A stretch of DNA of 64,000 bases from a candidate division TM6 bacterium GW2011_GWF2_43_87 (GCA_001000065.1 LCGZ01000004.1:128867-192866); one strand, 5' to 3'. Positions 11,232 through 45,501 are shown, numbered from the stretch's first letter. Notes: generated by a model not told the origin, from the letters alone. Made by a program: numbers and translations.

Positions 11232-11269
11232 GCTTTAAATAAGAGCCTGTGAATAGGGAGGAGTCTTTG

Positions 11270-12163
11270 ATGGAAAAATTTTTTATTCATAAAAAATTTA
11301 ATCGCATAGTTATAGCTTTATTGCTGGGCGCTTTTGCAGGATCTGTTAAAGCTGCAAACACACAGGCTACTGAAAATTTTTTTGAAGCGGTTAATCAAAA
11401 AGACTTTGTTTCAGCTGATCAGGCTATTGCAGATGGTGCGGATATAAATGGGGTTGATAAATTAGGCCGTACTCCTCTTCATTGCGCTACAGAAATAAGT
11501 AATAATATTGAAACCATTAAATATTTGGTTGGCAAGGGTGTGGACGTTGATAAAATCCATAACAAGACACGTTGTCCGGCTTTGTACGAGGCGCTGAAGC
11601 GTGGAGATTTTGAAGCCATTGAATGTTTGGTTGGTGCAAAAGCCAATATAAAACTCCCTTATATCAACACGTGGAATTTTCTTCATGATGCTGCGACGGA
11701 AAATTGGAGCGCTTCAGTTGTAAAGTATTTAATTGAGCATGACTTAAACATTGATCAAGTTAATGTTGCGTATCAGAGCTCTCTGCATATTGCTGCACGG
11801 GAAGGAAATTATGGCATTGTCAAGTGCTTGGTTGAAGCGGGAGCCTCTATTTCTTTAAAGGATGAGAACAATAAAACACCTCGCGATTTGGCGGTCGAAA
11901 ATAATCATTCTCTTATAGTTGATTATTTAGATAGTTTTTATGTGCCCTTTTATAAAATGAGAGCATTTGTAAGGCGGTATAAAGTGTTGATAAGCGGTAT
12001 TTCTGCGGTAGCAATTTTGGCTGCAGGTGCGCGCGGGTGGTATGCTCGTCGTAATAGGTTGCCATTTATACCGTCTTTTTTGGGTAAACGAGGCCTTTCG
12101 TCCGTGTCAAAGGTGCCATCTACTCATGGGGTGATTACGCCTAATCTGTTTTCACATGTATAA
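11270..12163 (+). CDS. Ankyrin-repeat protein, array member 2 (close paralog of 10323..11231)
   Basis: N-terminus and C-terminus nearly identical to member 1. ANK repeats. Confidence 0.8.
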   Translation: MEKFFIHKKFNRIVIALLLGAFAGSVKAANTQATENFFEAVNQKDFVSADQAIADGADINGVDKLGRTPLHCATEISNNIETIKYLVGKGVDVDKIHNKTRCPALYEALKRGDFEAIECLVGAKANIKLPYINTWNFLHDAATENWSASVVKYLIEHDLNIDQVNVAYQSSLHIAAREGNYGIVKCLVEAGASISLKDENNKTPRDLAVENNHSLIVDYLDSFYVPFYKMRAFVRRYKVLISGISAVAILAAGARGWYARRNRLPFIPSFLGKRGLSSVSKVPSTHGVITPNLFSHV

Positions 12164-12226
12164 GCTTTAAATAGGTGGGATTTTAGATTATAGGGTAAAG
12201 AGCCCGTGAATATGGAGGAATATTCA

Positions 12227-29510: not shown

Positions 29511-32111
29511 TTAAGCTTTCATATTACTTTCAAGCCACAGACGCAGATCATTTTTCAATGTCTGAGGAATCTGGACAGCACCACCTTGCATTGTATCACC
29601 CGAACAGCCCCCCTTTAATCCTTTTGTAGTAAGCCATGCAGCGCATGCACGAAGGTCAAAGGCATTTGCAAATGCGGCAGCCCGGAGAGCAAAGAAGGTT
29701 GAAGAACTTTCTCCGTGCGAAAGTAAGAAATAAAAGCCCGGTTTTTTTTGTACCAGAATTTGTCCTAGTTCGCGTAACTCTTTACCCGACATTTCTTCTG
29801 CAACAATAAAACCAAACGGCATGCCGCGAACAAGTTCTGAGTTATTAAGCCATTCAGGAATCTGCAGAGATGCGAGTTTTTGGCGAATTTCACGCAGAGC
29901 TTGTGTTAGCTCTTTCTGTTCATTTTGCAGCCGATTAACGGCATCAACTACTTCATGCGTTTGCACTTTAAAGTGCTGGGAAAGTGTTTTTACCGTTGTA
30001 AGTGTTTCGTCAAATAGTTCTCGCGCCGCATCTCCGGTGACTGCTGTAATACGTTTAACTCCCGTTGAAAGCGCCGCGCTGGACGTGATTTTAAAGAGAC
30101 CGATTTCGCCCGTGGCTTGCACATGCGTACCGCCGCAAAGCTCAGATGAAAATCCAGTAACTTCGACTACACGTACTGATTCGGGGTTATATTTTTCGCC
30201 AAAGAATGCTATAACTCCATCTTCTAGAGCCTGTTTGTAGTTTGTGGTACGTACGTTTACGGGTAGGTTTTCAAGAATTTTTTGATTAACTAATTCTTCA
30301 ATTTCCATGAGTTTGCTTGAGGAAAGTGTATCATGGTGGGTGAAGTCAAATCGAAGATAGTCAGCACTTACCAAAGAGCCTGCTTGTTTGACATGCGATC
30401 CTACCAATTTCATTAGAGCAGATTGCAAAAGATGCGTAGCCGTGTGGTTGCGAGCCGAGCTTTTTCTATTTTTTTTGTCCACGGTTAGGGTAACTTTGTC
30501 CCCCAATACCAATTTCTCTGGTGCATCGATAGTCAGGAGGTAGGCATTACTTACTTTTTTAATGTTCTTTATCAAGGATGAATTGCCGTGCGACGTGGAA
30601 AGATATCCGGTATCCTCCATTTGGCCCCCACCAGCAATGTAGAAAGGGCTCTGCTTTGTTATTACAATGCATTCAGTTCCACGTTCAACCGATTTTATAA
30701 ACTGTCCGTCAAGCATGAGAGCTATGATTGATGAGTGCACAACAAGCTCATTGTATCCTACAAATTCTGTAACGATAGTCGGATCAAGAACTATCTTCTC
30801 TACGGTTTCTACCTTCTTGCCAGATTGCTCACGCTGCAGTGACATAGCCTTTTCAAAGCCGGGCTCATCCACCGTAAACCCTTGTTCATAAGCAACCAGC
30901 GAGGTTAACTCAAAAGGAAAACCGTAGGTGTCATACAATTTGAAGGCTTGTTCGCCCGAAATAACTTTAGTCTCTGTTGAATCCTTAAGGTACTTTTGTA
31001 AAATTCCCTGTCCTTGAATTAGGTTGTGGGAAAATTTTTCAAGTTCACTCGTTATAATACTAATGATTAACTCACGGCTAGTATAAAGCTCAGGATAGAT
31101 AGGCCCCATGTTTTCTATTAAGACAGGTGCAAGCCGGGCAAAGAACATAAGGTCGCCTAGTTTTTGAGCAAACAAAGCGGCTCGCCGTATAATTTTGCGA
31201 AGCACATACCCGCGTCCCTCGTTTGAGGGCATGCCACCGTCAGCAATACAGAGACTGGTGGAGCGTATGTGATCAGCAAGAACGCGGAACGCTGTTTGAG
31301 TTTCTGCGTCTGACGATTTGTATGACCTCCCGGAGAATTTTTCAAGAGCGGTCATGAGAGGTTCAAATAGATCGGTATCAAGAACGGTGCTAGCATTTTG
31401 AAGTACTGCAGAGATCCGTTCTAGCCCCATTCCAGTGTCAATGCCTTTTCGTTCAAGAGGAAGTTCTTTCCCATCGGCTTGCCGGTCAAATTGCATAAAT
31501 ACTAGGTTCCAGATTTCTAAAAAGCGTTCGCACTCATCACCAACTTTTAGATTTACTTCGGATTCATCTTTAGGGCCACGATCATAATAAATTTCGGAAC
31601 AGGGGCCGCATGGACCTGTATCGCCCATCTGCCAGAAATTATCTCGTCTGCCTAAACGCACGATGTGATCTGCAGGAATTCCTATTTCTTTGTTCCATAT
31701 TTGGTAGGCTTCGTCATCCGCCTCGTAGACGCTGATGTAAAGTTTGTCAGGAGAGAGATTAAGTTCTTTGGTTAAAAAGTCCCATGCAAAACGGATGGCA
31801 TCCTGTTTGAAGTAGTCTCCAAAGGAAAAGTTGCCAAGCATTTCGAAGAAAGTTAAATGGCGAGCTGTGCGCCCTACATTATCAAGATCGTTATGTTTGC
31901 CACCAGCTCTCATGCATTTTTGTATGGTTACGGCTCGAGAATAATGCCGTTTTTCTTTGCCAAGGAAGATGTCTTTAAATTGGTTCATGCCCGCATTGGC
32001 AAACAAGAGTGTTGGGTCATCAGCGGGGATAAGCGAGGAGCTTGCAACGTGTGTATGCCCGTTCTTTTTAAAGAATTCGAAGAACTTTTGACGAATCTCA
32101 ATCGATTTCAT
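29511..32111 (-). CDS. alaS: Alanine--tRNA ligase
   Basis: MKSIEIRQKFFEFFKKNGH…, FANAGMNQFK, and an 866-aa AlaRS architecture ending in a DHHA1-like C-terminus. Confidence 0.95.
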   Translation of the reverse strand: MKSIEIRQKFFEFFKKNGHTHVASSSLIPADDPTLLFANAGMNQFKDIFLGKEKRHYSRAVTIQKCMRAGGKHNDLDNVGRTARHLTFFEMLGNFSFGDYFKQDAIRFAWDFLTKELNLSPDKLYISVYEADDEAYQIWNKEIGIPADHIVRLGRRDNFWQMGDTGPCGPCSEIYYDRGPKDESEVNLKVGDECERFLEIWNLVFMQFDRQADGKELPLERKGIDTGMGLERISAVLQNASTVLDTDLFEPLMTALEKFSGRSYKSSDAETQTAFRVLADHIRSTSLCIADGGMPSNEGRGYVLRKIIRRAALFAQKLGDLMFFARLAPVLIENMGPIYPELYTSRELIISIITSELEKFSHNLIQGQGILQKYLKDSTETKVISGEQAFKLYDTYGFPFELTSLVAYEQGFTVDEPGFEKAMSLQREQSGKKVETVEKIVLDPTIVTEFVGYNELVVHSSIIALMLDGQFIKSVERGTECIVITKQSPFYIAGGGQMEDTGYLSTSHGNSSLIKNIKKVSNAYLLTIDAPEKLVLGDKVTLTVDKKNRKSSARNHTATHLLQSALMKLVGSHVKQAGSLVSADYLRFDFTHHDTLSSSKLMEIEELVNQKILENLPVNVRTTNYKQALEDGVIAFFGEKYNPESVRVVEVTGFSSELCGGTHVQATGEIGLFKITSSAALSTGVKRITAVTGDAARELFDETLTTVKTLSQHFKVQTHEVVDAVNRLQNEQKELTQALREIRQKLASLQIPEWLNNSELVRGMPFGFIVAEEMSGKELRELGQILVQKKPGFYFLLSHGESSSTFFALRAAAFANAFDLRACAAWLTTKGLKGGCSGDTMQGGAVQIPQTLKNDLRLWLESNMKA

Positions 32112-32168
32112 ATAGTGCTACCTGCGGTAAAAGGTCATGTATAAAGACATGAGTAAGTATATAATCTT

Positions 32169-33626
32169 TTGCTTATTTTGAAAAAGCACGTTCTAAAAAA
32201 AGGCGCATTTTCTATGGAGCGACTTTTACATATAGGAATTTTGGCACTGCCATTTGTTTGCATGTTAAGTGCTTTTGGTGGGGATATAGAGGCGGAAGAT
32301 CAATCGGATAAGCCATCAATAACTTTTTCTGAAAAAATTAGATGGTGCGATAATTTAGGCTGTTCATGCACAAAGCTAGAACCCACCCCCAAACCTACAT
32401 TAATTTTAAGTGGGTATGTGAATGCACAGCAGTGCTTTGATACACGTCAGGTGTATAGTTCTCGGGATGGAGAGGGCTTAGAGTATCCCTTTAAAAAAGA
32501 TATTGTAGCCTGCGGGGTTGATGCGAATAAGCAGGGTTCATTTTCGATGTATCTCTTTAACGTGCTTTTGGCTTTTTACGCGTGTGGAAAGCCTGTATGG
32601 GGAACTAAGAAAACGTATGCTATTATTTCGACTGATTTTCGAGGTATGGATGCCACTACTATCGAATTGTTGCGAATGCGCGATGCCTACGTTGTTTTTG
32701 ATTGGGAGCGAACGCAGCTTTTAACGGGTCAAAAATTACACCCTTTCTTTATAGACGATTGTTATCCCAATACGGTTGCAGGTGGTCCATTGGAGGTTTT
32801 TACCAATATTCCTATGGTTCGGTTAACCCAGAAACTGAATGGCGCGTATAAAAAGCCTAGTGATAATTTGATTTTTACCCTGGGTACACAGTGCCCGGCA
32901 ACTATGAGTAAAAGCCCAACTTCAGATGCGCCTGGAACGTCTTTTGTGAGAAGTACGCTGGTGGGACGCAACGGGGTAATGCCTATACTGCAGGTTCAGT
33001 GGCGCCATTATTTTGGTACGGATAATTTCTTTGGGATCATGATTGAGGGTCAACGGCTTCGTCCTCGTCTTAAAACAGCTGCATCTATACCCTATGCTGA
33101 AAAATGTTCTGCGTTTACTGAATGCATGTGTGGCATGTATGCAAAAATAGTTTCTGATTGTGCCATTTTAAAAACCAAGGCATCGTTTATTCAAGACGGC
33201 AGTGAGCTGGGATTTATGGGAGGATACGCGGTTGAGGACCAAGCTTCGTTCTCAAAGCGACAAAAATACACTCCTTTAAGGTCGATTTCCTTCTGGTTTG
33301 ACGTAGATTTTTGGCCAGATCAGGAGCTTTCTCCAGGGTTTATTGTTGCATTCTCAAAAAATTTGGGAGCAGGAAAATTGTTATTCCTGGATGCAAATAA
33401 ACAGCCAACCATTTACTGTTATGGACCGGGTGGATCGGCTGCAAGTATTGATACATTTTTTAAGGTTTCACCGCGATTGTGGTTTTCGAAGGGTGTGATA
33501 AATATAGGGGCAGAGATTGATTGGACTCGGGCTGGTTATGGGACTATTGATGAATATGGAGCGGTGCAGAATGCAGTTCCAGTAAATAATGTTAGATTCC
33601 AGTTATCGATATTTTATAAATTCTAG
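32169..33626 (+). CDS. Cys-rich outer-membrane beta-barrel protein (porin/MOMP-like family), paralog 1
   Basis: Signal peptide (MERLLHIGILALPFVCMLSAFGG). Many Cys. C-terminal beta-signal …VRFQLSIFYKF with alternating hydrophobics and a terminal Phe. Confidence 0.55.
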   Translation: MLILKKHVLKKGAFSMERLLHIGILALPFVCMLSAFGGDIEAEDQSDKPSITFSEKIRWCDNLGCSCTKLEPTPKPTLILSGYVNAQQCFDTRQVYSSRDGEGLEYPFKKDIVACGVDANKQGSFSMYLFNVLLAFYACGKPVWGTKKTYAIISTDFRGMDATTIELLRMRDAYVVFDWERTQLLTGQKLHPFFIDDCYPNTVAGGPLEVFTNIPMVRLTQKLNGAYKKPSDNLIFTLGTQCPATMSKSPTSDAPGTSFVRSTLVGRNGVMPILQVQWRHYFGTDNFFGIMIEGQRLRPRLKTAASIPYAEKCSAFTECMCGMYAKIVSDCAILKTKASFIQDGSELGFMGGYAVEDQASFSKRQKYTPLRSISFWFDVDFWPDQELSPGFIVAFSKNLGAGKLLFLDANKQPTIYCYGPGGSAASIDTFFKVSPRLWFSKGVINIGAEIDWTRAGYGTIDEYGAVQNAVPVNNVRFQLSIFYKF

Positions 33627-33658: not shown

Positions 33659-35127
33659 ATGACCATGGGTAGGAGATTGAGGATACTGAGCGTTTTATGG
33701 ATAGGTATTTGTACTGTTAGTGGTTTTGCGTATAATTATGCTCAGAGTAAGAATTTTGGCGAAAAGACGCAAAAAAAATTAAATACCCGAGTGATTCATA
33801 AAGCATCAGGTGAAAATTTTGACTGCTCTTGTTTAAAATTAGCGCCTACTTCTAAGCCTGTAATTACGGCTAGTGGATATGTAGATATTGAGCATTGTTT
33901 TGATACGCGTCAAATCTATGGATTTCGTGATGGTGAAAGCTTGGTATACCCTTTAAAGCGCGATTTATGTGCGTGTGGAGTTGATGCACATAAACAGGGA
34001 GCTTTTTCTATGTATCCATTTAATGTTCGGTTGGATCTGCTTATTCAACCACCCCCTGGAGTAGCCGTGGGGAATACTAAGAAGACATGGGCCTGTATAT
34101 TAACGGATTTTTATGGAATAAGTGACAGTATTACTGAACTTTTGCGTATGCGAGAAGCTTATGTTGTTTTCGAGTGGCCTGAGTCTCGGTTGTTGGTGGG
34201 ACAAGATTTACATCCATTTTTTATCGAAGATTGTTTTCCTAATACCGTGTCTTTTTCTAATGGCGCTCCTATGGAAGTTTCCACTTATATTCCTGTTGTT
34301 CGTTTTACACAAAATCTGAATAGTATATCTGGGATAAGTAAAAAAAAACCGATCAATTAATTTTTGTTTTGGCAGGTTCGCAATGTATGTTTACCAAAAG
34401 TCAAAGTCCTCTTTTTGATGCTGTTACTTCTCCAGCATCCGTTTCGTCCACTTTGGTAGCGCGCAATGGAGTAATGCCTGTTATGCATGTTCAATGGCGT
34501 CACTGTTTTGGCGGGGATAATTTTTTTGGGGTTTTGATTGAGGGACAGCGGCTTCGTCCACGTCTAAAAACCGGAACAACTCCAGCTTTTGCAGAACATG
34601 ATTCGGCTTTTACAGAATGTCTAGCGGGGGCATATGTAAGAGTTGGGTCAGATTGTGCTGTTTTGAAAGCCAAGGCGATGTTTGTTCAGGATGGGAGTGA
34701 GTTAGGATTAATAAGTGGCTATGCCGTGGAAGAGATGGCGCCAGTATCCCACAAACAAAAATATACGCCTACACGTTCTGTTGCAGCTTGGGTTGATTTA
34801 GATTTGTGGCCAGATCAGAAATGGGTGCCAGGGGGGGTGGTTGCGTTTGCAAAAAATTTGGGTGCAGGTAAGCGATTATATGTAAATCCTTCAACCGGGA
34901 GCCCGGTTGTATATGGTCTTGGACCAGTTTCTGGAGCGGCATCTACCATTGATATTGTTTTTAAAGTAGCTCCTAGATTGTGGATTAAACGAGCGGTTGT
35001 TGAGGTAGGTCTTGAGATTGATTGGACTCAGGCTAGGTATGGGACTATTGATGAATATGGGGCGGTACAGAATGCAGTTCCAGTAAATAATGTTAGATTC
35101 CAGTTATCGATATTTTATAAATTCTAA
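33659..35127 (+). pseudogene. Paralog 2 of the Cys-rich OMP family, split into two ORFs by a frameshift in an A9 homopolymer (34340..34348)
   Basis: ORFs 33659..34360 and 34369..35127 together align end-to-end with paralogs 1 and 3. Removing one A restores …ISKKKTDQLIFVLAGSQCMF…. Confidence 0.6.
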
Positions 35128-35252
35128 AAAAGGCGTTAATAACTTTTGACGAATTGCAATCGATTTCATATAGTGCTACCGGTAGCAAAATTTAGGCGTA
35201 ATATGGACGTAAGCTTATAGAAGCATGTTTTTGAAAAAGAGGGGAGCCGTAT

Positions 35253-36761
35253 ATGAAGCAACTTATAAAAATTAGCACTGGTTTCGTCGCCTCTGTCTGT
35301 ATATTGCAGATTTGCGCGGCTGATGAGGCGTCTAAAAAATTGGCAGATAAAACAGAAAAAGTTCTAGAAAGTGCTGCAGTTAAACCAGTAAAAACACCTT
35401 ATGAAAAAACCAGTTTTTGTGAGAAATTTGGCTGCTCGTGTACAAAGCTAAAGCCGCATAAAAAGCCAGTGATAACTATCAGCGGATTTGTTGATGCAGA
35501 GCACTGTTTTGATACGCGCCAGGTTTATGGATCTCGTGATGGAGAAGGGTTTTATTACCCGCGGGAGAAAGATCTTGTCGCTTGCGGGGTGGACGCTAAC
35601 AAACAGGGCTCTTTTTCAATGTTTCCGTTTAACGTTCGTTTGCTTTTCCAGATTGAGGGAGATCCGGTAGCAAATATGAAAAGAACGTATGCATTTATTG
35701 GTACGGATTTCCGTGGTACAGCTGATACTACCATTGAGCTTTTACGTATGCGTGAAGCGTACATAGTTCTCGATTGGGAGCGCACGCAGATTTTAGCGGG
35801 GCAAAAATTACATCCTTTCTGTAGTGATGACTGCAACCCTAATACGGTTTCGTATTCCAAGGGTGGCCCGATGGAAATCTATACCTATATTCCCATAGTT
35901 CGTCTAACACAGACTTTAAATGGAACCTATGAAAAACCTGCAGACCAGCTCTTTTTAATTCTTGCGGGTGGTCAATGCCCTGCAACCCAAAGTAAAAGTC
36001 CGTTGACAGATGCTCCTGGGGCGACATCTACAACGGTAGGAACTGCTAGCGCTGCAACTACTTTGGTGGGACGCAACAGTGTAATGCCCATTATGCAGGC
36101 GCAATGGCGTCATTATTTTGGCAAAGAAAATTATTTTGGAGTCACTATCGAAGGTCAGCGCCTAAGACCTCGTCTTAAAACTGTTGGGACGGGAAGTCCT
36201 GTTGTACCCTATGCCGAAAAATGTTCCGCCTTTACTGAGTGTATGTGTGCCGCTTATATGAAACTGACTTCGGAATGTGCGATTTTAAGGGCTAAATTAG
36301 CCTTTATACAAGATGGAAGTGAGCTAGGGTTTATTAGCGGCTATGCCGTTGAAGACCAAGCGAGTGTATCTAAACGACAAAAATATACTCCGTTGCGTTC
36401 TATCGCATCGTGGTTTGATGTAGATTTTTGGCCTGACCAGGAGTGGATGCCTGGGGCTGTAATTGGCTTTGCGAAAAACTTTGGTGCAGGCAAGAAGCTG
36501 TGGCTAAATGCCAATGGACAGCCTACCGTTTACACGTCAGGACCGGTTTCTGTAGCTAATCCAGGGGGTACAGGTGCAACTATCGATACGCTCTTTAAGT
36601 TTGCTCCACGATTGTGGATTAAAAAGGGCCCCGTGCATTTAGGCCTCGAATTTGACTGGACACGAGCTGCTTTTGGGAAGCTGGATGAATATGGTGCAGT
36701 CTATGGGGCTGTGCCGGTTAACAATTTCCGACTACAGTTTTCTATTTTCTATAGATTCTAG
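35253..36761 (+). CDS. Cys-rich outer-membrane beta-barrel protein, paralog 3
   Basis: Signal peptide. Conserved blocks CSCTKLKP…GFVDAEHCFDTRQVYGSRDGEG…ACGVDANKQGSFSM. C-terminus …FRLQFSIFYRF. Confidence 0.55.
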   Translation: MKQLIKISTGFVASVCILQICAADEASKKLADKTEKVLESAAVKPVKTPYEKTSFCEKFGCSCTKLKPHKKPVITISGFVDAEHCFDTRQVYGSRDGEGFYYPREKDLVACGVDANKQGSFSMFPFNVRLLFQIEGDPVANMKRTYAFIGTDFRGTADTTIELLRMREAYIVLDWERTQILAGQKLHPFCSDDCNPNTVSYSKGGPMEIYTYIPIVRLTQTLNGTYEKPADQLFLILAGGQCPATQSKSPLTDAPGATSTTVGTASAATTLVGRNSVMPIMQAQWRHYFGKENYFGVTIEGQRLRPRLKTVGTGSPVVPYAEKCSAFTECMCAAYMKLTSECAILRAKLAFIQDGSELGFISGYAVEDQASVSKRQKYTPLRSIASWFDVDFWPDQEWMPGAVIGFAKNFGAGKKLWLNANGQPTVYTSGPVSVANPGGTGATIDTLFKFAPRLWIKKGPVHLGLEFDWTRAAFGKLDEYGAVYGAVPVNNFRLQFSIFYRF

Positions 36762-36799: not shown

Positions 36800-37837
36800 A
36801 TGCAGGTGTTACCACGTGGCGAAGATGGTATAGGGTATGTTGCACCAGCTTTTCTTTTAGCTGGAATGGGAATTATGTCGATCTTATTAGGGGTGATATT
36901 TTACCAGGCCAGTTTTAACGTTAAGATTCGGGATCTGTACGCACCGGTTCAGACTTTGACTCCCAAAAAATTGGCTTATTTTGGAGGAACGCCTTCTGAT
37001 GTAACTGTAGGAATGTTTGTGCGAGACTTTCCCCAATTTGATGCGGTTCGAGGGACCTTTTCTGTAGATACTACCGTCTGGTTTTTATTTGACCCGCGGC
37101 TTGTTTCTATTGAGCGAATCGGAGATTTTACCTTTGAGCGGGCAGAAATTTTGAAACGATCCGAGCCCTACGTTCGCGTTGTGGGTAATATGGTTTTTGT
37201 TCGTTATGATATGCGCATGCGGTTCAATATGTCTTTTGACTATCAAGATTTTCCTTTTGATGGTCACCGGCTTAATTTTACCATGGTGCACTACTTTCTC
37301 TCTCCTGCCGAGGTTACCTTTAACTCTTCGCGTGCCAACTTAGTAATGAGTCCTGATATTAATATTCCGGGATGGAGAAATATTGATAGGCGCGTTGCTA
37401 CAGGGTACTCAGAAGAGCGGTTAGAGACGCAAGATGGTAAGCAGGAGTCTTTTTATCCCCGTGCCGTTTTTTCGCTTGATTTTGAGCGCATTGGGACTCG
37501 TAATATTATTTCGATATTTCTCCCTCTTCTTTTGGTTTTTTTTATAGCGTTATTTACATTTTCATTTGATCCTGTTGGAAAAATGGGTGTGCAGGCTGTT
37601 ACACTTTCAGCGACATCTATTACGGCACTGATTGCCTATCGATTTGTTATTGAAAATATGTCTCCTCCCGTAGGTTATTTTATGGCGTCTGACTATATAT
37701 TTTTAATATTTCTTGTGTCGTGCTGTGCCATATTTTTTATAAATATTTTTGGAGCCTATGTATCAGGAATCAGTAAGGCAATTATAGCGGTTGTACTTGA
37801 ATCGATCATAGTAACGACGTTCTTTTTATTGGTTTAG
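36800..37837 (+). CDS. Pentameric ligand-gated ion channel (Cys-loop receptor / neurotransmitter-gated ion-channel family) homolog
   Basis: AGAGGGAGAAG RBS. About 190-aa extracellular-type domain with W..D.RL and the Cys-loop-equivalent FPFD motif. A pre-M1 Arg, then M1 with a conserved Pro (IFLPLLLVFF), M2 (VQAVTLSATSITALIAYRFV), M3, a short loop and M4. Confidence 0.7.
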   Translation: MQVLPRGEDGIGYVAPAFLLAGMGIMSILLGVIFYQASFNVKIRDLYAPVQTLTPKKLAYFGGTPSDVTVGMFVRDFPQFDAVRGTFSVDTTVWFLFDPRLVSIERIGDFTFERAEILKRSEPYVRVVGNMVFVRYDMRMRFNMSFDYQDFPFDGHRLNFTMVHYFLSPAEVTFNSSRANLVMSPDINIPGWRNIDRRVATGYSEERLETQDGKQESFYPRAVFSLDFERIGTRNIISIFLPLLLVFFIALFTFSFDPVGKMGVQAVTLSATSITALIAYRFVIENMSPPVGYFMASDYIFLIFLVSCCAIFFINIFGAYVSGISKAIIAVVLESIIVTTFFLLV

Positions 37838-37847
37838 GACGTAACTT

Positions 37848-40034
37848 ATGAGGAAGATAGTACTAGGTGTCATTCTGTTAAATACCTCTTGTGCTAATGC
37901 TTTATTTGAAACGCTTTCTGAATGTAAGAATTTTGCAAATACATACAGGGAAGATGTAGAGTGTGATAATTGTAGTTGGAGGGATCCCTCGTACTCGACC
38001 TTTTATGGTTCTGTGAGAGTCGGTTTTTTCAAACGTCTTTTAAAAAAGCTTGGAATAAAAGCGGGTGTGTGGGATTTATTGGAACTTAAGCAGCCCATTG
38101 GTAGAATAGTTCAACGTTTTAATGTGACGAAACAACAACGTTCTTGGACCCCTGAGATAACGGTTGAAGAGGGCGTAAATCTTTTTGTATGGGGTGATTT
38201 ATATGGAGCGTTTCATTCTTTTCTTCGTGATCTTGATGAACTTGCAGCACGGAAAGTGCTAAGTGAGCAACTTAAGATAAATAGTAAAACAGATTATCTA
38301 GTGGTATTAGGGAATGCGATTAATTATTCTCCTTATTCTTACCCCTTGCTTACTCTGTTACTTTCTCTGATTGAAAAAAACCCTGAGCATTTTATTTATA
38401 TACGAGGTCCTCAGGAAACTGCTGCTCACTGGAAAGATTTTTATGTAATGCGTAAGCCTCTTGTAGACCTTGGAAAGCAGCAGGGTTTTGATGTGAAAGG
38501 GAAGTTGCCGCTTGAGGACGAGTTGAATACATTTTTTGGTACCTTGCCAGATGGTGTTCTTTTTAGGCATAAAAAAGCTGAGGATCTATGTTGTCTTTCC
38601 CATTCAATAATATCGCGAAAGTTATTTTTTGACCCCAAGGTTCAGGCCGCATTGATGGGGAAATCCAGGATTGATACATATTGGTCTAATAATGGACTTG
38701 AGTTTTCAGGATTCGAGGGCAATGCTGCAACATGGTCTCTCTTTTCAGCTCCTGTGGGAATTTATCAGAAGGCTGTGAATTTCTATAGTGATAGTTTTGT
38801 AGCGGTACATGTCGGAAAGTCATTCGCGCAGAGCACTATGTCTCTATTTTCTCGCGATATTCGTTTGGTGGAAAATTTTAAGGAGCAGGTTTTTTCATTG
38901 TCTGTGGGGATGAAAATTGATCCGAGAAAAAAAACTCAAGAAATCCCGATTTTCTCGATTGGATCTACTATGCCGCTGACGGGGGGGTTGATGCCTTTAG
39001 GCGTTTCTGTAAAGCAAGGAGTTGAAGCGGCTTTTAGGAAGGTTAATGATTTGGGCGGTGTTGATGGTTATTTTTTGAAGCTTGTAATATTAGATGATCG
39101 CTATTCTCCTGGAATAGCTAGGGCAAATGTTGATCTTTTATTAAAAAAATTTGGAATTCAGACATTGATTTGTCCTGTTGGAACTCCCACTCTAAATGCT
39201 TATTTGGATCTAGTGCGCGCTGGAAAGGTGTGGGTGTTTTATCCGATTACGGGTAGTGAATTCTTTAGATCTCCAGACCTTGGAAATATTGTTAACCAAC
39301 CCTATGGTAATGATACAAAGGCTTTGATGAAATTTATGGCTTCAACCCATAAATTTGAGCAATATGCTATAGTTTATCCTCGAGATCTTTACGGAAACTT
39401 GTTGATGGAGCAGGCTCAAGATGTTCTTAAGAGTTATGGCATAAATGATGTTTTATTATTTCCTGTCTCTCCCAAACAGAGAGATTTTAAAGAAATAGTG
39501 AAAAAATTGAAAGAAGCGGATCCAGAAGTATTAGCTATCTTTTTGGCTTCAGGATCTATGGCTTCATCTTTCTTAAGTCAACTTGGTAATGCTTTTCTTG
39601 GGGGAAAGAATTTGGCTGCTCTTGCCTATTTGGATGATGCAAACTTTGGGCCGTTTTTACATAAAACGGGGTTAAAGTTTAATTTTTCGTATTTACTTCC
39701 AAATCCTTATGGAAGTGACTTTGCATTTTTAAGAGACTACCGGGAGCATTTGAAACGGTATGATGGCCCTATTGACGTTAATTCATTAGAAGGATTTTTG
39801 GGTGCAACTTGTTTTGTTGAAGCAATGAAGAAAGTTGGAAAACCATTTGCCCCTTCTGCTATTAATGATTATCTAACGCATTTAAATCCATTTCCTATCA
39901 AAGGTTTTTTGACCCTTGAGAAGGATCCTCTAACGGGAAAGCGTTATCTTCCTGTTAGCATAAAAAACGATGAGAATGAGTGGATAATGTTGAATAATCT
40001 ACAAGAGGACCATGATTTATCCAAGAGGAAATAG
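37848..40034 (+). CDS. Secreted two-domain protein 1: N-terminal PPP-family Ser/Thr phosphatase-like (calcineurin/PP1-like, degenerate motifs) fused to a C-terminal type-I periplasmic binding protein (LivJ / ANF-receptor-like)
   Basis: Signal peptide. WGDLYGAFHSF (GDxHG-like), VVLGNAINYSPYSY (GDxxDRG-like, D->N), and YIRGPQE (GNHE-like). C-terminal half IGSTMPLTGGLMPLGVSVKQGVEAAFRKVNDLGGVDGYFLKLVILDD… has a LivJ-like pattern. Confidence 0.65.
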   Translation: MRKIVLGVILLNTSCANALFETLSECKNFANTYREDVECDNCSWRDPSYSTFYGSVRVGFFKRLLKKLGIKAGVWDLLELKQPIGRIVQRFNVTKQQRSWTPEITVEEGVNLFVWGDLYGAFHSFLRDLDELAARKVLSEQLKINSKTDYLVVLGNAINYSPYSYPLLTLLLSLIEKNPEHFIYIRGPQETAAHWKDFYVMRKPLVDLGKQQGFDVKGKLPLEDELNTFFGTLPDGVLFRHKKAEDLCCLSHSIISRKLFFDPKVQAALMGKSRIDTYWSNNGLEFSGFEGNAATWSLFSAPVGIYQKAVNFYSDSFVAVHVGKSFAQSTMSLFSRDIRLVENFKEQVFSLSVGMKIDPRKKTQEIPIFSIGSTMPLTGGLMPLGVSVKQGVEAAFRKVNDLGGVDGYFLKLVILDDRYSPGIARANVDLLLKKFGIQTLICPVGTPTLNAYLDLVRAGKVWVFYPITGSEFFRSPDLGNIVNQPYGNDTKALMKFMASTHKFEQYAIVYPRDLYGNLLMEQAQDVLKSYGINDVLLFPVSPKQRDFKEIVKKLKEADPEVLAIFLASGSMASSFLSQLGNAFLGGKNLAALAYLDDANFGPFLHKTGLKFNFSYLLPNPYGSDFAFLRDYREHLKRYDGPIDVNSLEGFLGATCFVEAMKKVGKPFAPSAINDYLTHLNPFPIKGFLTLEKDPLTGKRYLPVSIKNDENEWIMLNNLQEDHDLSKRK

Positions 40035-40046
40035 TGAGGAGGTAGT

Positions 40047-42266
40047 ATGGCAAATTTATCCCTAAAGCATTTGGTAATTTTATTTTATATAGGTGTTCTC
40101 CTGTTTGATAGTCTTGGGGTGCATGCATCTTTTAACACACTCTTTGAGTGTAAAAAATTTGCAGCACGGCATGAAGAAAGTCCCAAGAGTGATGATAGTA
40201 ATTGGAATGATCCTATTTTTGCTTCCTTTTATTCAAAAATGTTGCCTAGTTTTTTAAAGCGTATCGCGTTAAAATTTGGGTTTGGATCGAATGAATGGGA
40301 TGTCTCAAGGTTGGAAATTCCTTTAAAAAGAGTGGTTGAGCTGCGCCAAAAGATAGTAAAACCTCATCCATGGACCGTAGAGATTGAGGTAAAGGAGGGG
40401 ACGCGACTTTTTATATGGGGAGATCTGTATGGGGCAATTCACTCGTTTGTTCGTGGGCTTGAAGAGCTTGAGAGACGAGAGATAATCAACGAGAACTTGA
40501 AAATCATAAAGAATGATGACTATATAGTGCTTCTAGGGAATGCGATTAATCTTTCACCGTACTCATATCAGATGCTAGAGCTTATACTTTCTTTGATGGA
40601 AAAGAATCCGGAGCGCTTTATTTATTCGCGTGGGCTGCAAGAAAAAGGGCTTAAGTGGAAAGATGGCTATGTAATGCGTCAACCACTTATTGAATTGGCG
40701 CGTAAGGCAGGGAAAATTCATACAGGCGATGTGTCTCTTGAGAATGCCCTTAGCACTTTCTTTAATACGTTACCCGATCTGATTTTATTCAAGCATATAG
40801 GGCAGGGTAAAGAACAGCTGATATGTTCACATACAGACGTCCCTTATTCTATGTTGTCTAATCCAAAAGTTATGGCCTGGCTCGCAGGAGAGCGACGAGG
40901 AGAGCTATCATGGACAACAACAGGATTATCCTTTCTCGGGTTTGACGGTAATGCAGCGAAATGGTCTCTATTGTCGGCACCTATCTCCATTTATCAGGAA
41001 TTGGCAGAATTTTATTCAGATAGCTTTATGGAAATTAGTGTTGAAGATTCATTTACTCAGAGTATCTTGAATCTTTTTTCGCGAGATATGCGGACTAAAG
41101 AGGCCTTTAAAAAAGAGAGCCATTATCTGTCTGTGGGGTTGTCTATTCCTGTTGGCGAAGCACCTAAAAAGATATCTATCTTTACCGTGGGGTCTTCTTT
41201 GTGTTTAACAGGAGCAATGCGCCCACTTGGACGTGCGGTAAGGCGAGGGATTCTTGCGGCCTTTAGGAATGTAAATGAGCAGGGTGGAGTAAGTGGTTCT
41301 TACGTTAAATTGGTGGGATTGGATGATCAATATAGTCCGCGACTTGCGCGAAAAAATATTGACCTGTTTCTTGATCAGTTTGGTATTAATGTCATCCTAT
41401 GCCCTACGGGAACTCCCACGTTAGATTCCTACCTTGATTTGGTACGCAAGGGAGATGTTTTTGTATTTTATCCGGTTAGTGGAAGTGAAACTTTTAGAAC
41501 TCCTGATCTTTTGAATCTTATTAATCAGCATGTTCCTTATGCAAATGAGGTGCAGGCTTTGATGAACTTTGTTGTTTCAGAATATAAGCTAAAGCAGTAC
41601 GCAATCGTCTATCCTGATGATAGCTTTGGAAATCCTCTTATGCGCACGGCCAAAGAAATACTTGAAAAATTGGGCGTGAAAAGTGTTGTTCCTATTCCTT
41701 TTTCTCGTGATCAGACAAGTTTTGAGGAACAGGTTAAAAAACTGAAAGAAGTTACCCCAGAAGGAATCGCCTTCTTTTTTGCTGCAGGATCTTTGGCTAG
41801 CGCATTTTTAAGCCAAACTGGAACCGCATTTTTGGTGGGGAAACATCTGGCTGCGCTTTCTTATTTGGATGACATTGTTTTTAGGCAGTTTATTACAAAG
41901 GCGGGCTTGAGGTTTACTTTTTCCTATGGGGTTCCAGATCCAAATTTAAGTGAACTTGGGTTTGTTAAAGAGTATCGGTCGCAGATGGGAAAATACCATT
42001 ATCCTATCGATAGTAATTCTCTAGAGGGATTTTTAGGGGCGTCTGCCTTTATTGAGGCAATGAAGAAAGTAGGGTCTCCTTTTAAGGCAAATAAATTAAT
42101 GGGTTATCTAGAGTCGCTGCAAGTTTCTCCTGTAAAGAATTTTATAGATGTTCCCTTTGATCGAAGAGTTAGAGGCGTTGTGTATCCCACCTGGATAAAG
42201 TCAGAATCGGGGAACTGGATTGCTGCGGATGAGAAAAAAGGGCTAGATGGAGCAGCTAAAAAATGA
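40047..42266 (+). CDS. Secreted two-domain protein 2: PPP-phosphatase-like + PBP type-I fusion (paralog)
   Basis: IWGDLYGAIHSF, VLLGNAINLSPYSY, and YSRGLQE. C-terminal VGSSLCLTGAMRPLGRAVRRGILAAFRNVNEQGGVSG…LDDQYSP. Confidence 0.65.
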   Translation: MANLSLKHLVILFYIGVLLFDSLGVHASFNTLFECKKFAARHEESPKSDDSNWNDPIFASFYSKMLPSFLKRIALKFGFGSNEWDVSRLEIPLKRVVELRQKIVKPHPWTVEIEVKEGTRLFIWGDLYGAIHSFVRGLEELERREIINENLKIIKNDDYIVLLGNAINLSPYSYQMLELILSLMEKNPERFIYSRGLQEKGLKWKDGYVMRQPLIELARKAGKIHTGDVSLENALSTFFNTLPDLILFKHIGQGKEQLICSHTDVPYSMLSNPKVMAWLAGERRGELSWTTTGLSFLGFDGNAAKWSLLSAPISIYQELAEFYSDSFMEISVEDSFTQSILNLFSRDMRTKEAFKKESHYLSVGLSIPVGEAPKKISIFTVGSSLCLTGAMRPLGRAVRRGILAAFRNVNEQGGVSGSYVKLVGLDDQYSPRLARKNIDLFLDQFGINVILCPTGTPTLDSYLDLVRKGDVFVFYPVSGSETFRTPDLLNLINQHVPYANEVQALMNFVVSEYKLKQYAIVYPDDSFGNPLMRTAKEILEKLGVKSVVPIPFSRDQTSFEEQVKKLKEVTPEGIAFFFAAGSLASAFLSQTGTAFLVGKHLAALSYLDDIVFRQFITKAGLRFTFSYGVPDPNLSELGFVKEYRSQMGKYHYPIDSNSLEGFLGASAFIEAMKKVGSPFKANKLMGYLESLQVSPVKNFIDVPFDRRVRGVVYPTWIKSESGNWIAADEKKGLDGAAKK

Positions 42267-42283
42267 TTGTGAGGGGTTAGAAT

Positions 42284-44485
42284 ATGAAGGGATATTTTTT
42301 AGTTTCACTAATGATATATGTCGGTATGGCCAATGGGGCTGTAGGGCTAGATACACTTGAAAAATGTCGCACCTTTGCAGCTTCGTATCCAGAGTTTCCC
42401 AAGGCTGATAATGACGATCTTATTGATCCTAAATATTCTTCGTTTTATGCAAGCTCTTATCCGTCATTTTTGATGCGCATATCAGCTTCTATTCGTATGG
42501 TTGATAATATATGGGATTTCTCGATTTTAGAAAAATTATTAGATAAAATAATTGCAACGGCTGGCAAAAAACCTGAATCAGGTCTTTTTATTAAGAACGT
42601 TATTGTAGAGCCTGGAGCTCGCGGTATAGTTTTTGGGGACTTGCATGGACAGATTCACTCATTTATACGAGATTTAGGCGAGCTTGAGCGTCTGGGTTTT
42701 ATGGACGGGAATCTTAAGTTTAAAGATCAGCGTACCTATGGCATTCTTTTGGGAGATGTTATTAATAGGACATCGTATTCGTACCAAATTCTGCAGGTTG
42801 TATGCAATCTTATATTAAATAATCCAGGACACTTTTTTTATATTCGTGGCAATCAAGAGCGTGAACAGCGGTGGGAGAGTGCTTTTGCTATGAATGAACC
42901 ACTGCATTGGTGGTCGAATATTCAGGGATATAGACGAGGTGCCTGTGCTTCTCTTAAGGATAAAATAAATCAGTTCTTTGACACGTTACCCGATATTGTG
43001 GCTTTGAAACTGACAACAAAGCCGAATGAGGTTGTGTATTGCGCTGCTGACACGGTGCCGGTTTCCATACTTTCACATCCGGGAGTTGAAGCTCTATTAG
43101 TAGGGGAGCAGCGCAAGCAAATGTTTCATATTCCATCAGGTCTTGATTTTATGAAGTTTAATGTGGGTGTTGCGCATTGGTCTCTTTTTTCATGTCCTTC
43201 AACCGTTTATCAATCTATGGTTGAGTTTTTTCGAGATGCGTTTGTTATTTTACGTGTTGGATCGTCATGGAGGCTATCTTCATTAGTTCTTAACTACCGT
43301 GATATTCGCAGGAAAGAGGGTTTTAAAAAAGAATTATTTGATTTAACTATGGGTATTGCATGCCCGTCAGAAAGTGATCTTGAAAAAAGTCTTAATAAGC
43401 CGGTTTATTCGATAGGTTCTAGTGTAGCGTTTTTTAGTGGCTATGGTGCAGCTGGAACATCATTAGGGCATGGCATAGAAGGAGCTATTTTAGCTGCAAA
43501 TGATAGCGGTGGTGTAAAGGGATATCTTATTAGGCCTATTGTGTTGGATGATGAAACGCTTGCGCGGCTTGCTCGGGCGAATGCAGAAAAATTAAAGAAA
43601 GAATATGGGGTTGATGTTATTGTTAGCGCTCAGGGAACTGAGCAGGTATCCTCGTATCTTGATCAAGTAAAGGCTGGAAGCATTATCTCGCTATTTCCCC
43701 GTACAGGCGCCCCACAGCTTAGGAATATGTCGATGAAAAATATGGTGCATTTTAGAACTTCCTATGATGATGAAACAACGGCGTTAATAGACTATGTGAT
43801 AAAAGAGTATAAGGTACGTTCCTTTACGTTTGTGTACCAGAATGATGGGTATGGTATTCCAGTTTTGGAAGCTGCACACAAAGCGCTTATAAAATGGGGT
43901 ATAACTACCTGGACTGATATTCCTTACTCTCGAGAGCAGGTTTCGTTTAGCGATACGGTTAAAAGAGTGAAAAAGGCTGGAGCTGAAGGATTAGGAATGT
44001 TCTTTTCTGCCCATGCTCCTATTCGAGCATTTTTGGAGCTTTTGGGAGCAGAGTTTTTCTTGGGCCGGGTAGGATTTGGTTTTTCGTTTATGATTAGCGA
44101 GGCAACTCGACAATTTTGTGAGTCACGTGGGATGCATTTTATATTGTCTTATTCAACGCCTGATCCCAACAGCGAGGATACTCCGTTTATACGAGAGTAT
44201 ACAAAGGCAATGAAACGGTATGGTATTATTCGTGATGTTAATTCTTTGGATGGATACATGGCTGGTGCGCTTTTGGTTGAGGCACTCTCCCATATTGAGC
44301 CTCCTTTTACCAAAGAAAAAATTATGAATTTTTTTGAAAATTTGAAGGACTATTCATTTGCAGGTTTCAAACTAAATTTTGATCCTGAAACCCGTCAGCT
44401 AGGATTGCCTGTTTGGGTGGTTGCTCCCGACAAAAAGGCACTTACTTTTGAGTATAAACGCTCTGTGTTAAAGGATCGGTGGTAG
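42284..44485 (+). CDS. Secreted two-domain protein 3: PPP-phosphatase-like + PBP type-I fusion (paralog with the best-preserved phosphatase motifs)
   Basis: FGDLHGQIHSF (GDxHGQ), LLGDVINRTSYSY (GDxxxR), FFYIRGNQE (GNHE with H->Q). C-terminal IGSSVAFFSGYGAAGTSLGHGIEGAILAANDSGGVKGYLIRPIVLDDE. Confidence 0.65.
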   Translation: MKGYFLVSLMIYVGMANGAVGLDTLEKCRTFAASYPEFPKADNDDLIDPKYSSFYASSYPSFLMRISASIRMVDNIWDFSILEKLLDKIIATAGKKPESGLFIKNVIVEPGARGIVFGDLHGQIHSFIRDLGELERLGFMDGNLKFKDQRTYGILLGDVINRTSYSYQILQVVCNLILNNPGHFFYIRGNQEREQRWESAFAMNEPLHWWSNIQGYRRGACASLKDKINQFFDTLPDIVALKLTTKPNEVVYCAADTVPVSILSHPGVEALLVGEQRKQMFHIPSGLDFMKFNVGVAHWSLFSCPSTVYQSMVEFFRDAFVILRVGSSWRLSSLVLNYRDIRRKEGFKKELFDLTMGIACPSESDLEKSLNKPVYSIGSSVAFFSGYGAAGTSLGHGIEGAILAANDSGGVKGYLIRPIVLDDETLARLARANAEKLKKEYGVDVIVSAQGTEQVSSYLDQVKAGSIISLFPRTGAPQLRNMSMKNMVHFRTSYDDETTALIDYVIKEYKVRSFTFVYQNDGYGIPVLEAAHKALIKWGITTWTDIPYSREQVSFSDTVKRVKKAGAEGLGMFFSAHAPIRAFLELLGAEFFLGRVGFGFSFMISEATRQFCESRGMHFILSYSTPDPNSEDTPFIREYTKAMKRYGIIRDVNSLDGYMAGALLVEALSHIEPPFTKEKIMNFFENLKDYSFAGFKLNFDPETRQLGLPVWVVAPDKKALTFEYKRSVLKDRW

Positions 44486-44496
44486 TAAAAATGTGA

Positions 44497-45501
44497 TCAG
44501 TTTTGTGACTGTTTTTTCACCACGCGAGATTTTGCTTTTGGGGCGTTTTTTAGAGCTTCTTTTAAGTGTGTGATGCACCAGGATAAACTCTCTGTTTTTA
44601 ATGAGGTGGGCTGAATTTTTGCCTGGGAATATGCATCGTTTAAGGAGAATAAAATGTAGGTGAACATCTGTTTTTTTGTGGGGATAGAAGAATTTTTACT
44701 TTTGGTAACAATGAAGCTTATTATAACTTTTAATGATTCAAAGCGTTCATTTTGAATTGCCCACTCTAGAATGGATGATATGTTTGGTTTTTTGAGATTG
44801 TTGGTGGAGAAAGGGTCGCAGAATAGATGAGAAATGGCGGTAGGAAGACCCCTTACTGTGTTATTTAGGAAGAGCGACAGAGTTTGAGGAGTGTCGTCTT
44901 TTACGTGGCTGTAAATGAGACACTTTTTTTGTTCTCTTGGAATAGCATTCCACTCTTCAAATAAGTTTTTTTTCGTTTTTGTATTCGGTTCCGTGGTGTT
45001 GCTGTCCTGTATAGGTCTTTTTTTACAGAATTTTTTTGAGGAGCCTCTTTTCCGTTTAATAGGGGGATTTTTTGTGGACGCGATTTTTTGTGGGCCCTGT
45101 TCAACTATTTTAGTTGGCTGTGGCTCGGTCTCCTCGTCTGGGTCGAAAAACTGGAAAGTTGGCATGTCAAAAAACTTGTCAGGGTCTAAGGTCATCGGTT
45201 TTAAAATGGTTGTGGGGGATTGTGGTGGTGTCACGATTCCCTGATCAACGAGCACGTTGGTTGAGTTGTTTTCTAGGTGAGCTAGTAGATCTTGTATTGG
45301 GGTATTGTTTTCATCTAGCCAAAAAGGCGTTGGGTCGGGAGTAGTTGAGGGTGGAAAGCTTGACGGCTGTTGATCATCAAGATCCAGAAGGTTGAAAGTT
45401 GGTTCTGTGTTATCGTTTTCCCATTCATTCATTGCCCACAGGCTGCTTGTGATAGAAAAGAGTAGCAGGACAATTAGCTGTGGCAGATGTTTTCTGATCA
45501 T
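44497..45501 (-). CDS. Hypothetical secreted Pro/Thr/Asn-rich protein with a basic KRKR…KKFCKKR cluster
   Basis: Signal peptide MIRKHLPQLIVLLLFSITSSLWA. Low-complexity PSSFPPSTTPDPTP. A basic patch PPIKRKRGSSKKFCKKRP. Confidence 0.5.
   Translation of the reverse strand: MIRKHLPQLIVLLLFSITSSLWAMNEWENDNTEPTFNLLDLDDQQPSSFPPSTTPDPTPFWLDENNTPIQDLLAHLENNSTNVLVDQGIVTPPQSPTTILKPMTLDPDKFFDMPTFQFFDPDEETEPQPTKIVEQGPQKIASTKNPPIKRKRGSSKKFCKKRPIQDSNTTEPNTKTKKNLFEEWNAIPREQKKCLIYSHVKDDTPQTLSLFLNNTVRGLPTAISHLFCDPFSTNNLKKPNISSILEWAIQNERFESLKVIISFIVTKSKNSSIPTKKQMFTYILFSLNDAYSQAKIQPTSLKTESLSWCITHLKEALKNAPKAKSRVVKKQSQN

Follow-up and report, generated by a model that had tools for sequence, protein, structure and literature searches.

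Three tandem phosphatase-fold/binding-protein fusion genes behind a divergent ligand-gated channel gene in a candidate division TM6 bacterium: probable pseudophosphatases and candidate channel sensor subunits

In the candidate division TM6 bacterium GW2011_GWF2_43_87, three genes in tandem, designated c1, c2 and c3 hereafter, encode proteins beginning with a phosphatase-like domain, and the question raised by this locus is whether these domains are still enzymes or, if catalysis is lost, in which role they have been kept. The genes occupy positions 37,848 to 44,485 of a stretch of 64,000 nucleotides (nt) (GCA_001000065.1, LCGZ01000004.1:128867-192866), the whole of which is called the window and from the first letter of which all positions are counted. 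An initial annotation, made from the sequence alone, had read in them a duplication followed by a graded decay of catalytic motifs, leading to possible pseudophosphatases repurposed as binding modules; it had missed the C-terminal binding-protein domain of the three products as well as a conserved channel gene directly upstream, which are the most telling elements regarding function. With a probability of roughly 0.6, c1-c3 would be periplasmic sensor or accessory subunits of this channel, where the phosphoprotein phosphatase (PPP) fold is kept as a scaffold and not as an enzyme. The genes and the parts of their products are as follows (aa, amino acids; ORF, open reading frame; pLGIC, pentameric ligand-gated ion channel):

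36800-37837, plus strand: divergent pLGIC subunit with an N-terminal helix, a beta-sandwich ectodomain and four transmembrane helices
37848-40034, plus strand: c1, ORF of 728 aa starting 10 nt past the channel gene
c1 parts: signal peptide aa 1-18 (closing in ANA, before L); PPP-fold domain about aa 20-365, core 38145-38882; Peripla_BP_6 domain aa 371-674, 38958-39869
40047-42266, plus strand: c2, ORF of 739 aa
c2 parts: signal peptide (closing in VHA, before S); PPP-fold core 40359-41102; Peripla_BP_6 domain aa 380-693, 41184-42125
42284-44485, plus strand: c3, ORF of 733 aa
c3 parts: signal peptide (closing in ANGA, before V); PPP-fold core 42590-43342; Peripla_BP_6 domain aa 377-716, 43412-44431

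The three ORFs are present as initially annotated, together with every motif string then quoted, and follow each other and the channel gene at intervals of 10 nt (channel-c1), 12 nt (c1-c2) and 17 nt (c2-c3); over their full length, c1 is 49% identical to c2 and 32% to c3. Each N-terminus is a hydrophobic signal sequence closing in an Ala-x-Ala-like site, the phosphatase-like part makes up the N-terminal 370 residues or so (the N-domain), and the Pfam domain Peripla_BP_6 is found behind it in c1, c2 and c3 (121, 136 and 114 bits, respectively, for a cut-off of 31.7; E-values from 1e-32 to 4e-39). The Pfam domain Metallophos reaches 31.2 bits in c3, above its cut-off of 21.5, remains sub-threshold in c1 and has no match in c2. 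In the databases, the three proteins go by the names of 'hypothetical protein', 'Extracellular ligand-binding receptor' and 'putative ABC-type branched-chain amino acid transport system, periplasmic component'. From these features, c1-c3 are predicted to be exported periplasmic proteins of Candidatus Dependentiae (TM6), in which a PPP-fold N-domain is joined to a LivJ-type class I binding domain.

Regarding the neighbour upstream, the product of 36800-37837 escapes the usual domain models, with no Pfam match for the protein or any of its 142 homologs and an NCBIfam LGIC_1 match (E 2.4e-9) of 37 bits for a cut-off of 500. Against the sequences of the PDB, phmmer returned pLGICs only (best E 3.5e-4), and its AlphaFold2 model, with a predicted local distance difference test score (pLDDT) of 91.7, aligned in Foldseek over the full length to GluCl, GABA-A receptors and GLIC (E about 1e-17, probability 1.00); both the beta-sandwich ectodomain and the four-helix transmembrane domain of the pLGIC fold are thus present. 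Every named homolog among the 142 is from Dependentiae. Of note, the two channels of locus L007 (4241-5947 and 11604-13109) display an additional N-terminal region of about 240 aa, whose nature is unassigned.

Related loci were found in two ways, from an alignment of the three N-domains and from the channel. All 6 N-domain-derived loci that include upstream DNA have a pLGIC gene immediately before the fusion gene and on its strand, and in all 5 channel-derived ones the channel gene is immediately followed by a fusion gene; besides the window, the pairing is therefore found in 11 out of 11 related loci, with gaps of about 10 to 30 nt or overlaps, that is to say the conserved operon expected by gene order of a binding-protein-assisted pLGIC system. 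In several loci, the unit is repeated as channel-fusion-channel-fusion, and the trees of the channel and of its partner are congruent, with the same orthologous units (mirror-tree r 0.64), the two having been duplicated as units. As the fusion genes stand always directly behind the channel gene, their products are most likely channel sensor subunits rather than enzymes.

This reading presupposes that the phosphatase likeness is real. A profile of the three N-domains of the window, searched against 1.84e9 cluster representatives, gathered a family of 2331 representatives at E<1e-3, 449 of which at E<1e-30. The N-domain of c3 matched PPP phosphatases only, and weakly (best E 5e-4), among PDB sequences, while the comparison of the family profile with PP1 by hhalign gave probabilities of 97.9-98.5% (E 3.5e-13 to 1.6e-14). 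The N-domains of c1 and c3 are 34% identical across 358 residues (E 2e-68), and an AlphaFold2 model of the c3 N-domain built with 26 family sequences reached a pLDDT of 90.1 and a predicted template modelling score of 0.89. Taken together, the homology between c1 and c3, the profile match to PP1 and the model indicate that all three N-domains share the metallophosphoesterase/PPP fold. A chance resemblance of motifs was considered and rejected, the homology to PPP phosphatases being far above chance in hhalign, Pfam and the c1/c3 alignment.

By fold and sequence, the nearest PPPs are of the eukaryote type, namely PP5, PPEF and PP1. A canonical family member, P0052, which is a stand-alone N-domain of 386 aa, has eukaryote-type PPPs as all of its best 60 PDB matches (rdgC/PPEF, PP5, BSU1 and PP1; E about 3e-9), and a 'FNGD' motif is common to the family and PP5/PPEF. 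This eukaryotic affinity is a lead for an acquisition from a eukaryotic host, which may have occurred by horizontal transfer.

The catalytic residues were mapped by aligning the N-domains to PP1, PP2A and PP5 with HMMER and hhalign; the numbering of PP1 and lambda phosphatase was verified on reference sequences, the lengths and key positions of which agree with the numbering of the literature. In PP1, the first metal is held by Asp64, His66 and Asp92, and the second by Asp92, which bridges the two, Asn124, His173 and His248; His125 acts as the general acid together with Asp95, and the phosphate is bound by Arg96 and Arg221. The motifs of the three copies and their residues at the PP1 positions are the following:

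38193-38417, plus strand: c1 motif block, with GDLYGA (38193-38210), GNAINYS (38310-38330) and RGPQE (38403-38417)
38589-38606, plus strand: c1 CCLSHS, His kept at the His173 equivalent
40419-40643, plus strand: c2 motif block, with GDLYGA (40419-40436), GNAINLS (40536-40556) and RGLQE (40629-40643)
40818-40835, plus strand: c2 LICSHT, His kept at the His173 equivalent
42635-42859, plus strand: c3 motif block, with GDLHGQ (42635-42652), GDVINRT (42752-42772) and RGNQE (42845-42859)
43034-43114, plus strand: c3 VYCAAD, Ala at the His173 equivalent, and LVGEQR, a strand-end Glu probably at the His248 position
PP1 Asp64: D in c1, c2 and c3
PP1 His66: Y in c1 and c2, H in c3
PP1 Asp92: N in c1 and c2, D in c3
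PP1 Asp95: N in c1, c2 and c3
PP1 Arg96: Y in c1, L in c2, R in c3
PP1 Asn124: P in c1, L in c2, N in c3
PP1 His125: Q in c1, c2 and c3
PP1 His173: H in c1 and c2, A in c3

At seven positions (Asp64, His66, Asp92, Arg96, Asn124, His125 and His173), 5 canonical residues remain in c3 and 2 in each of c1 and c2. The GDxHG motif persists in c3 as GDLHG and has His replaced by Tyr in the GDLYG of c1 and c2; from GDxxDRG, c3 keeps Asp92 and Arg96 without Asp95 and the other two copies have lost all three; GNHE is found in no copy, c3 reading GNQE, c1 GPQE and c2 GLQE. The set of His173, His248 and Arg221 is incomplete in all of them, and the Arg221 region is deleted or shifted, with an ambiguous mapping. 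In the best candidate column for His248, the residue is Glu in c2 and c3 and Lys in c1; family-wide, the same column holds Glu in 102 of 150 representatives, with His outside the six commonest residues. The strand-end 'G-E-x-R' stretch concerned corresponds to PP1 'R-A-H248' in one local profile alignment obtained with longer members, in agreement with the strand order of the model, and to PP1 'G-E-N-D-R221' in a second, conflicting one, global hhalign being unreliable across the C-terminal half of the N-domain; this mapping is ambiguous, His248 being probably the better assignment, and c1, c2 and c3 are devoid of a His at the His248 position under either alignment.

Having lost His at the first site, Asn at the second and the Asp that bridges the two, c1 and c2 cannot assemble a two-metal site, and in addition they are deprived of the general-acid His and the phosphate-binding Arg. 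In c3, a single metal site could be preserved, but other residues now stand in place of the general-acid His, the Asp paired with it and the second-site His, so that this protein would catalyse very poorly at best or else bind metal or phosphate; replacing the general-acid His in lambda phosphatase or calcineurin reportedly cuts kcat several hundred-fold, as Mertz and colleagues are said to have found in 1997. Since the defining PPP motifs are incomplete, the N-domains of c1-c3 belong to the PPP fold and are not placed among the active PPP enzymes. With respect to the initial annotation, the PP1 alignments bear out the change of His to Tyr in GDxHG and that of the bridging Asp to Asn in GDxxDR (GNAIN) for c1 and c2. 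Its view of the loss of the general-acid His as specific to RGPQE and RGLQE was mistaken, as Gln stands there in all three copies, c3 included, and what c1 and c2 lose besides is the Asn ligand. That copy 3 retains the motifs holds for the strings as written and is overstated for the residues, given Asn for Asp95, Gln for His125 and Ala for His173. The misalignment it had envisaged as a refutation applies to GNHE, which was mis-mapped, while GDxHG and GDxxDR were rightly placed, and the catalytic set turns out neither intact nor entirely absent.

The decay is not recent. In a neighbour-joining tree, c3 pairs with L002_1708 (identical to P0001), from another Babeliaceae genome and with the same motif states, and c2 pairs with L002_3, c1 being sister to that pair; the three paralogs are therefore old, c2 and c3 having separate orthologs in this second genome. 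Between the orthologous N-domains, the proportion of nonsynonymous differences (pN) is 0.21 for c3 and 0.28 for c2, to be compared with a proportion of synonymous differences (pS) of about 0.73. Across all paralog and ortholog pairs, pS ranges from 0.64 to 0.76 and the synonymous rate dS is undefined or above 1.4, so that the dN/dS comparison of the paralogs initially proposed meets saturated sites, and only the qualitative relation pN << pS is used, without any dN/dS value; from this relation in the ortholog pairs, the degenerate N-domains are maintained under purifying selection. The slot of the cluster, between AlaRS on one side and EamA plus HIT on the other, recurs in other Dependentiae. 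In L012 it is filled by one fully canonical copy, and in L013 by two, the first canonical and the second degenerate (GDLYG / GNVVNL / GAQE), from which a duplication then a loss can be drawn as the general history. In the window lineage, as far as the residues tell, no canonical copy is left.

In the light of these data, it is rather improbable that c3 functions as a Ser/Thr or phospho-metabolite phosphatase, with c1 and c2 as recently decayed duplicates devoted to binding only. Such a view could draw on the retention of Asp64, His66, Asp92, Arg96 and Asn124 in c3, on its Metallophos score above the cut-off, on an ortholog conserving the same residues and on the active-looking canonical first copies of the orthologous slots; it has to cope with Gln in place of the general-acid His, Asn in place of its Asp partner, Ala at His173 and no His at His248, as well as with the age of c2 and c3 and a decay that is family-wide. 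As an intact enzyme, c3 was rejected because the general-acid His, the Asp partner and the His173 ligand are replaced.

The scale of this family-wide decay was assessed on 153 N-domains, i.e. c1-c3 and the best-scoring 150 of the 2331 representatives (clusters at 50% identity). Nearly all of these 150 carry the N-domain at their N-terminus or close to it, and most of the members scanned with Pfam have 1 to 7 Peripla_BP_6 domains behind it; in a few short members, the N-domain is seen alone (P0052, P0056 and P0033). The longest arrays, with three to seven tandem Peripla_BP_6 domains behind one PPP-fold domain (P0024 with 3020 aa, P0047, P0038 and L007 5890-11592), exhibit an unusual beads-on-a-string sensor layout, and in L011 the fusion gene is followed by a stand-alone degenerate N-domain of 330 aa without a binding domain (11254-12309). 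All the named or traced members are from Dependentiae, the seven loci retrieved being all assigned to Dependentiae or Babeliaceae. The signature D-H-D-R-N-H is displayed by 6 of the 153 N-domains only, the commonest one, D-Q-D-R-N-H, by 22. Compared with independence, the number of canonical residues is bimodal, with 37 N-domains observed for 11.6 expected at 6-7 out of 7 and 44 observed for 24 expected at 0-2 out of 7. Of the 56 N-domains with Asp at the Asp95 position, 54 have His at the His125 position (Fisher p 8e-11, uncorrected for phylogeny), a covariation which validates the mapping and indicates a site whose residues are retained or lost jointly. The family would thus be a mosaic in which members that are probably active, or at least metal-binding, coexist with many pseudoenzymes. 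The channels of L010 and L011 have no partners other than fully degenerate N-domains (GALGG, GPIAG and GPLNG), which argues that the channel-linked role does not need catalysis.

By conservation, the catalytic columns rank from 45th to 259th out of 368 and the top columns are non-catalytic. The best-conserved ones comprise glycines, an 'HS..R' helix, N180, W197, W299/S303/P305 and D318 in c3 numbering; with this numbering, N180 and D318 are conserved in 150 of 150 representatives, S126 in 149, W197 in 146, R129 in 145 and H125 in 141, and E37 and P49 are conserved within an N-terminal extension of 100 aa. An enzyme with a remodelled active site, performing a non-PPP chemistry with family-specific invariant residues, could be read from columns that differ in this way from the PPP catalytic ones (N180, D318, S126, W197, R129, H125, E37 and P49), but these residues also fit a conserved interaction surface or a structural core, and the Asp95-His125 covariation speaks of the classical site being kept or lost together; such an enzyme seems unlikely.

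A scaffold role of the fold is the preferred interpretation, and the pseudophosphatase label suits it: with a PPP fold, essential residues lost and retention under selection, c1 and c2 fit the definition of pseudophosphatases, and c3 is probably one too. The gradient of decay first described is real (5/7 versus 2/7), except that no copy is intact and that the phenomenon, with 6 canonical N-domains out of 153, belongs to the family and is not peculiar to this locus. Likewise, the scenario of duplication followed by loss of catalysis is borne out by the L012 and L013 slots, though for paralogs that are old and at a locus without any intact copy.

Turning to the binding domain, its nearest relatives of solved structure bind Leu, Ile and Val (4kv7, E 4e-16; LivJ 1z15, E 3e-4). 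The comparison with LivJ was made on a MAFFT alignment of 60 members, of moderate reliability, with a reference sequence identical to 1z15. The position of LivJ Ser79 is Ser or Thr in 56 of the 60, that of Tyr150 is Tyr or Phe in 54, and around Thr102 a 'P-x-[ST]-G' motif is conserved in the family; as for Tyr202, it is mostly Ser or Thr, and Glu226, which binds the alpha-amino group, is Ser in 51 of the 60. The pocket thus looks conserved within the family, and the ligand is probably not bound in the LivJ way. Besides, no gene for an ABC (ATP-binding cassette) permease or ATPase was found in the scanned flanks of the window or among the annotated neighbours of five related loci, so that neither the ligand contacts nor the adjoining ABC genes of a LivJ/LivK function are in place.

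The names given in databases, such as 'branched-chain amino acid ABC transporter substrate-binding protein', probably point in the wrong direction. An importer of branched-chain amino acids, for which the phosphatase-like domain would free the nutrient from a phosphorylated precursor, is suggested by the names of the source records ('ABC-type branched-chain amino acid transport system substrate-binding protein', 'Extracellular ligand-binding receptor') and by the solved relatives; it is nonetheless improbable, as the invariant neighbour is a pLGIC and not a permease or ATPase, Glu226 is replaced, most N-domains are without catalytic residues, and tandem arrays of as many as seven binding domains do not resemble the binding proteins of transporters. 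The identity of ABC-transporter binding protein was rejected in view of the invariant pLGIC neighbour, the lack of ABC genes in the scanned surroundings and the replaced LivJ contacts.

For the channel-subunit interpretation, the following course of events can be proposed. A small molecule would enter the periplasm and be captured by the binding domain; once loaded, the protein would influence the channel, whether by serving as its accessory or co-receptor subunit or by passing the ligand on to it, and the ion flux over the inner membrane would change as a result, while the PPP-fold domain, presumably devoid of activity, would serve as a structural, docking or oligomerisation module. A more ambitious version, which is put forward tentatively and is less probable than its simpler core, envisages a hitherto undescribed multi-part ionotropic receptor of Dependentiae, namely a divergent pLGIC gated or tuned by separate periplasmic subunits with a PP5/PPEF-like fold, possibly captured from the host, and one to seven binding domains; the canonical members might dephosphorylate a host-derived phospho-metabolite, in a reaction coupled to ligand capture and channel opening, and members decayed repeatedly and independently, c1-c3 among them, might act as pure sensing or docking modules.

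Several points weigh against the interpretation of c1-c3 as non-enzymatic channel subunits. Adjacency speaks for a functional link and not for a mechanism, and we infer the protein contact with the channel from it. The differences from LivJ in the pocket (Glu226 and Tyr202) mean that the class of ligand is not given by the likeness to LivJ. In c3 as in its ortholog, the conservation of Asp64, His66, Asp92, Arg96 and Asn124 hints at a residual metal or phosphate binding. At the level of the family, about one quarter of the representatives keep 6-7 of the 7 residues which, together with the Asp-His covariation, suggests that some members depend on catalysis or metal binding, and the N-domain may originally have been an enzyme; the family statistics themselves are uncorrected for phylogeny and describe the 150 best-scoring representatives.

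Upstream of the channel gene, three paralogous genes encode what is putatively an outer-membrane protein of the cluster:

32169-33626, plus strand: paralog 1, putative outer-membrane protein of about 490 aa, with a signal peptide and an aromatic beta-signal-like C-terminus
33659-35127, plus strand: paralog 2, split by a frameshift into ORFs 33659-34360 and 34369-35127
35253-36761, plus strand: paralog 3, putative outer-membrane protein, with a 38-nt gap to the channel gene

Paralogs 1 and 3 match each other with an E-value of about 1e-203, and the C-terminal ending of these paralogs is FSIFYRF; the two ORFs of paralog 2, in different frames, match the N- and C-terminal halves of a paralog, which makes of it either a pseudogene or an assembly error. 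The paralogs scanned have no match in Pfam or NCBIfam, and paralog 3 has none in the PDB sequences. As homologs precede the channel gene in six loci (L005, L006, L008, L011, L012 and L013), they may constitute an unannotated outer-membrane protein family of Dependentiae. Paralog 3 is probably the first gene of the operon. Identical promoter-like elements (TTGACG, a 17-nt spacer and TATAGT) occur at 32088-32116 and 35146-35174, before two of the paralogs; in a promoter and terminator scan of the region, counts were not above the shuffled expectation, and these promoter-like sites are a hint only.

Dependentiae are protist- and amoeba-associated bacteria, and two genes on the other side of the cluster are worth mentioning:

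44497-45501, minus strand: ORF of 334 aa with a signal-like N-terminus and a Pro/Thr-rich segment, without Pfam match; it also adjoins the c3 ortholog in L002
45923-46816, minus strand: ankyrin-repeat protein with an N-terminal signal-like sequence, of a class typical of host-associated bacteria; L010 has an ankyrin-repeat gene too, a few kilobases downstream of the cluster

That c1-c3 are secreted effectors mimicking host PP1 or PP5 inside an amoeba host, as the nearness to eukaryote-type PPPs, the protist-associated phylum and the ankyrin-repeat proteins nearby might evoke, is very improbable in view of their plain Sec-type signal peptides, their fusion to periplasmic binding domains, their degenerate catalytic residues and the strict operon that their genes form with those of a channel of the inner membrane and of a putative outer-membrane protein. 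As channel subunits, they would rather belong to a candidate device by which these obligate associates of protists sense their host.

Among known systems, c1-c3 share with LivJ/LivK-type proteins the membership of Peripla_BP_6 and the conservation at the Ser79, Thr102-region and Tyr150 equivalents; unlike these, the one to seven binding domains of the family follow a PPP-fold domain and have no ABC partner nearby. Compared with the eukaryote-type PPPs (PP5, PPEF/rdgC, PP1 and calcineurin), the family is only about 15% identical, has added the conserved N-terminal extension of 100 aa, is exported to the periplasm, is fused to binding domains and has variably lost the catalytic residues; with respect to PP1, c1-c3 are about 47 residues shorter between the His173 and SAPNY positions, the Arg221 loop or the His248 strand being missing. 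Among inactive relatives of the metallophosphoesterase fold, Vps29 and the B-subunits of DNA polymerases alpha, delta and epsilon are scaffolds as well, though from another branch of the superfamily, cytosolic or nuclear, and without fusion to a binding protein. PPP-type pseudophosphatases were first reported in 2023, in Apicomplexa, where PfPPP8 has a structural role with GDxxDRG changed into GNLINRG, the reversion of the residues giving no activity (PMC10317984). The same double change of Asp to Asn is found in the GNAIN of c1 and c2; PfPPP8 is however a eukaryotic cytoskeletal protein, whereas c1 and c2 have lost many more residues and are bacterial, periplasmic and channel-linked. In this respect, a large bacterial family of thousands of clusters, spanning the spectrum from canonical to degenerate within one architecture, offers a natural series from enzyme fold to scaffold.

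Regarding the channel side, the literature searched yielded no bacterial periplasmic fusion of a PPP fold and a binding protein tied to a pLGIC, and nothing relevant on Dependentiae with ligand-gated channels or periplasmic binding proteins. The closest precedents are bacterial pLGICs to which a class I binding domain is fused, or whose operons also encode class II binding proteins or Cache domains; the extra module was proposed to pre-concentrate or sense ligand (Tasneem et al., 2004, PMC549065). That bacterial ligand-gated channels work with separate periplasmic binding modules is a prediction of long standing, and the strict pairing described here, with a pLGIC subfamily that is unannotated, opens it to direct testing. 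As in these systems, and in DeCLIC with its N-terminal domains, a ligand-gated channel is associated with an additional periplasmic module binding small molecules; what sets the present system apart is that the binding domain is carried by a separate polypeptide and always together with a PPP-fold domain, that the channel belongs to a subfamily missed by Pfam, that a putative outer-membrane protein gene is frequently present, and that the named or traced members are all from Dependentiae.

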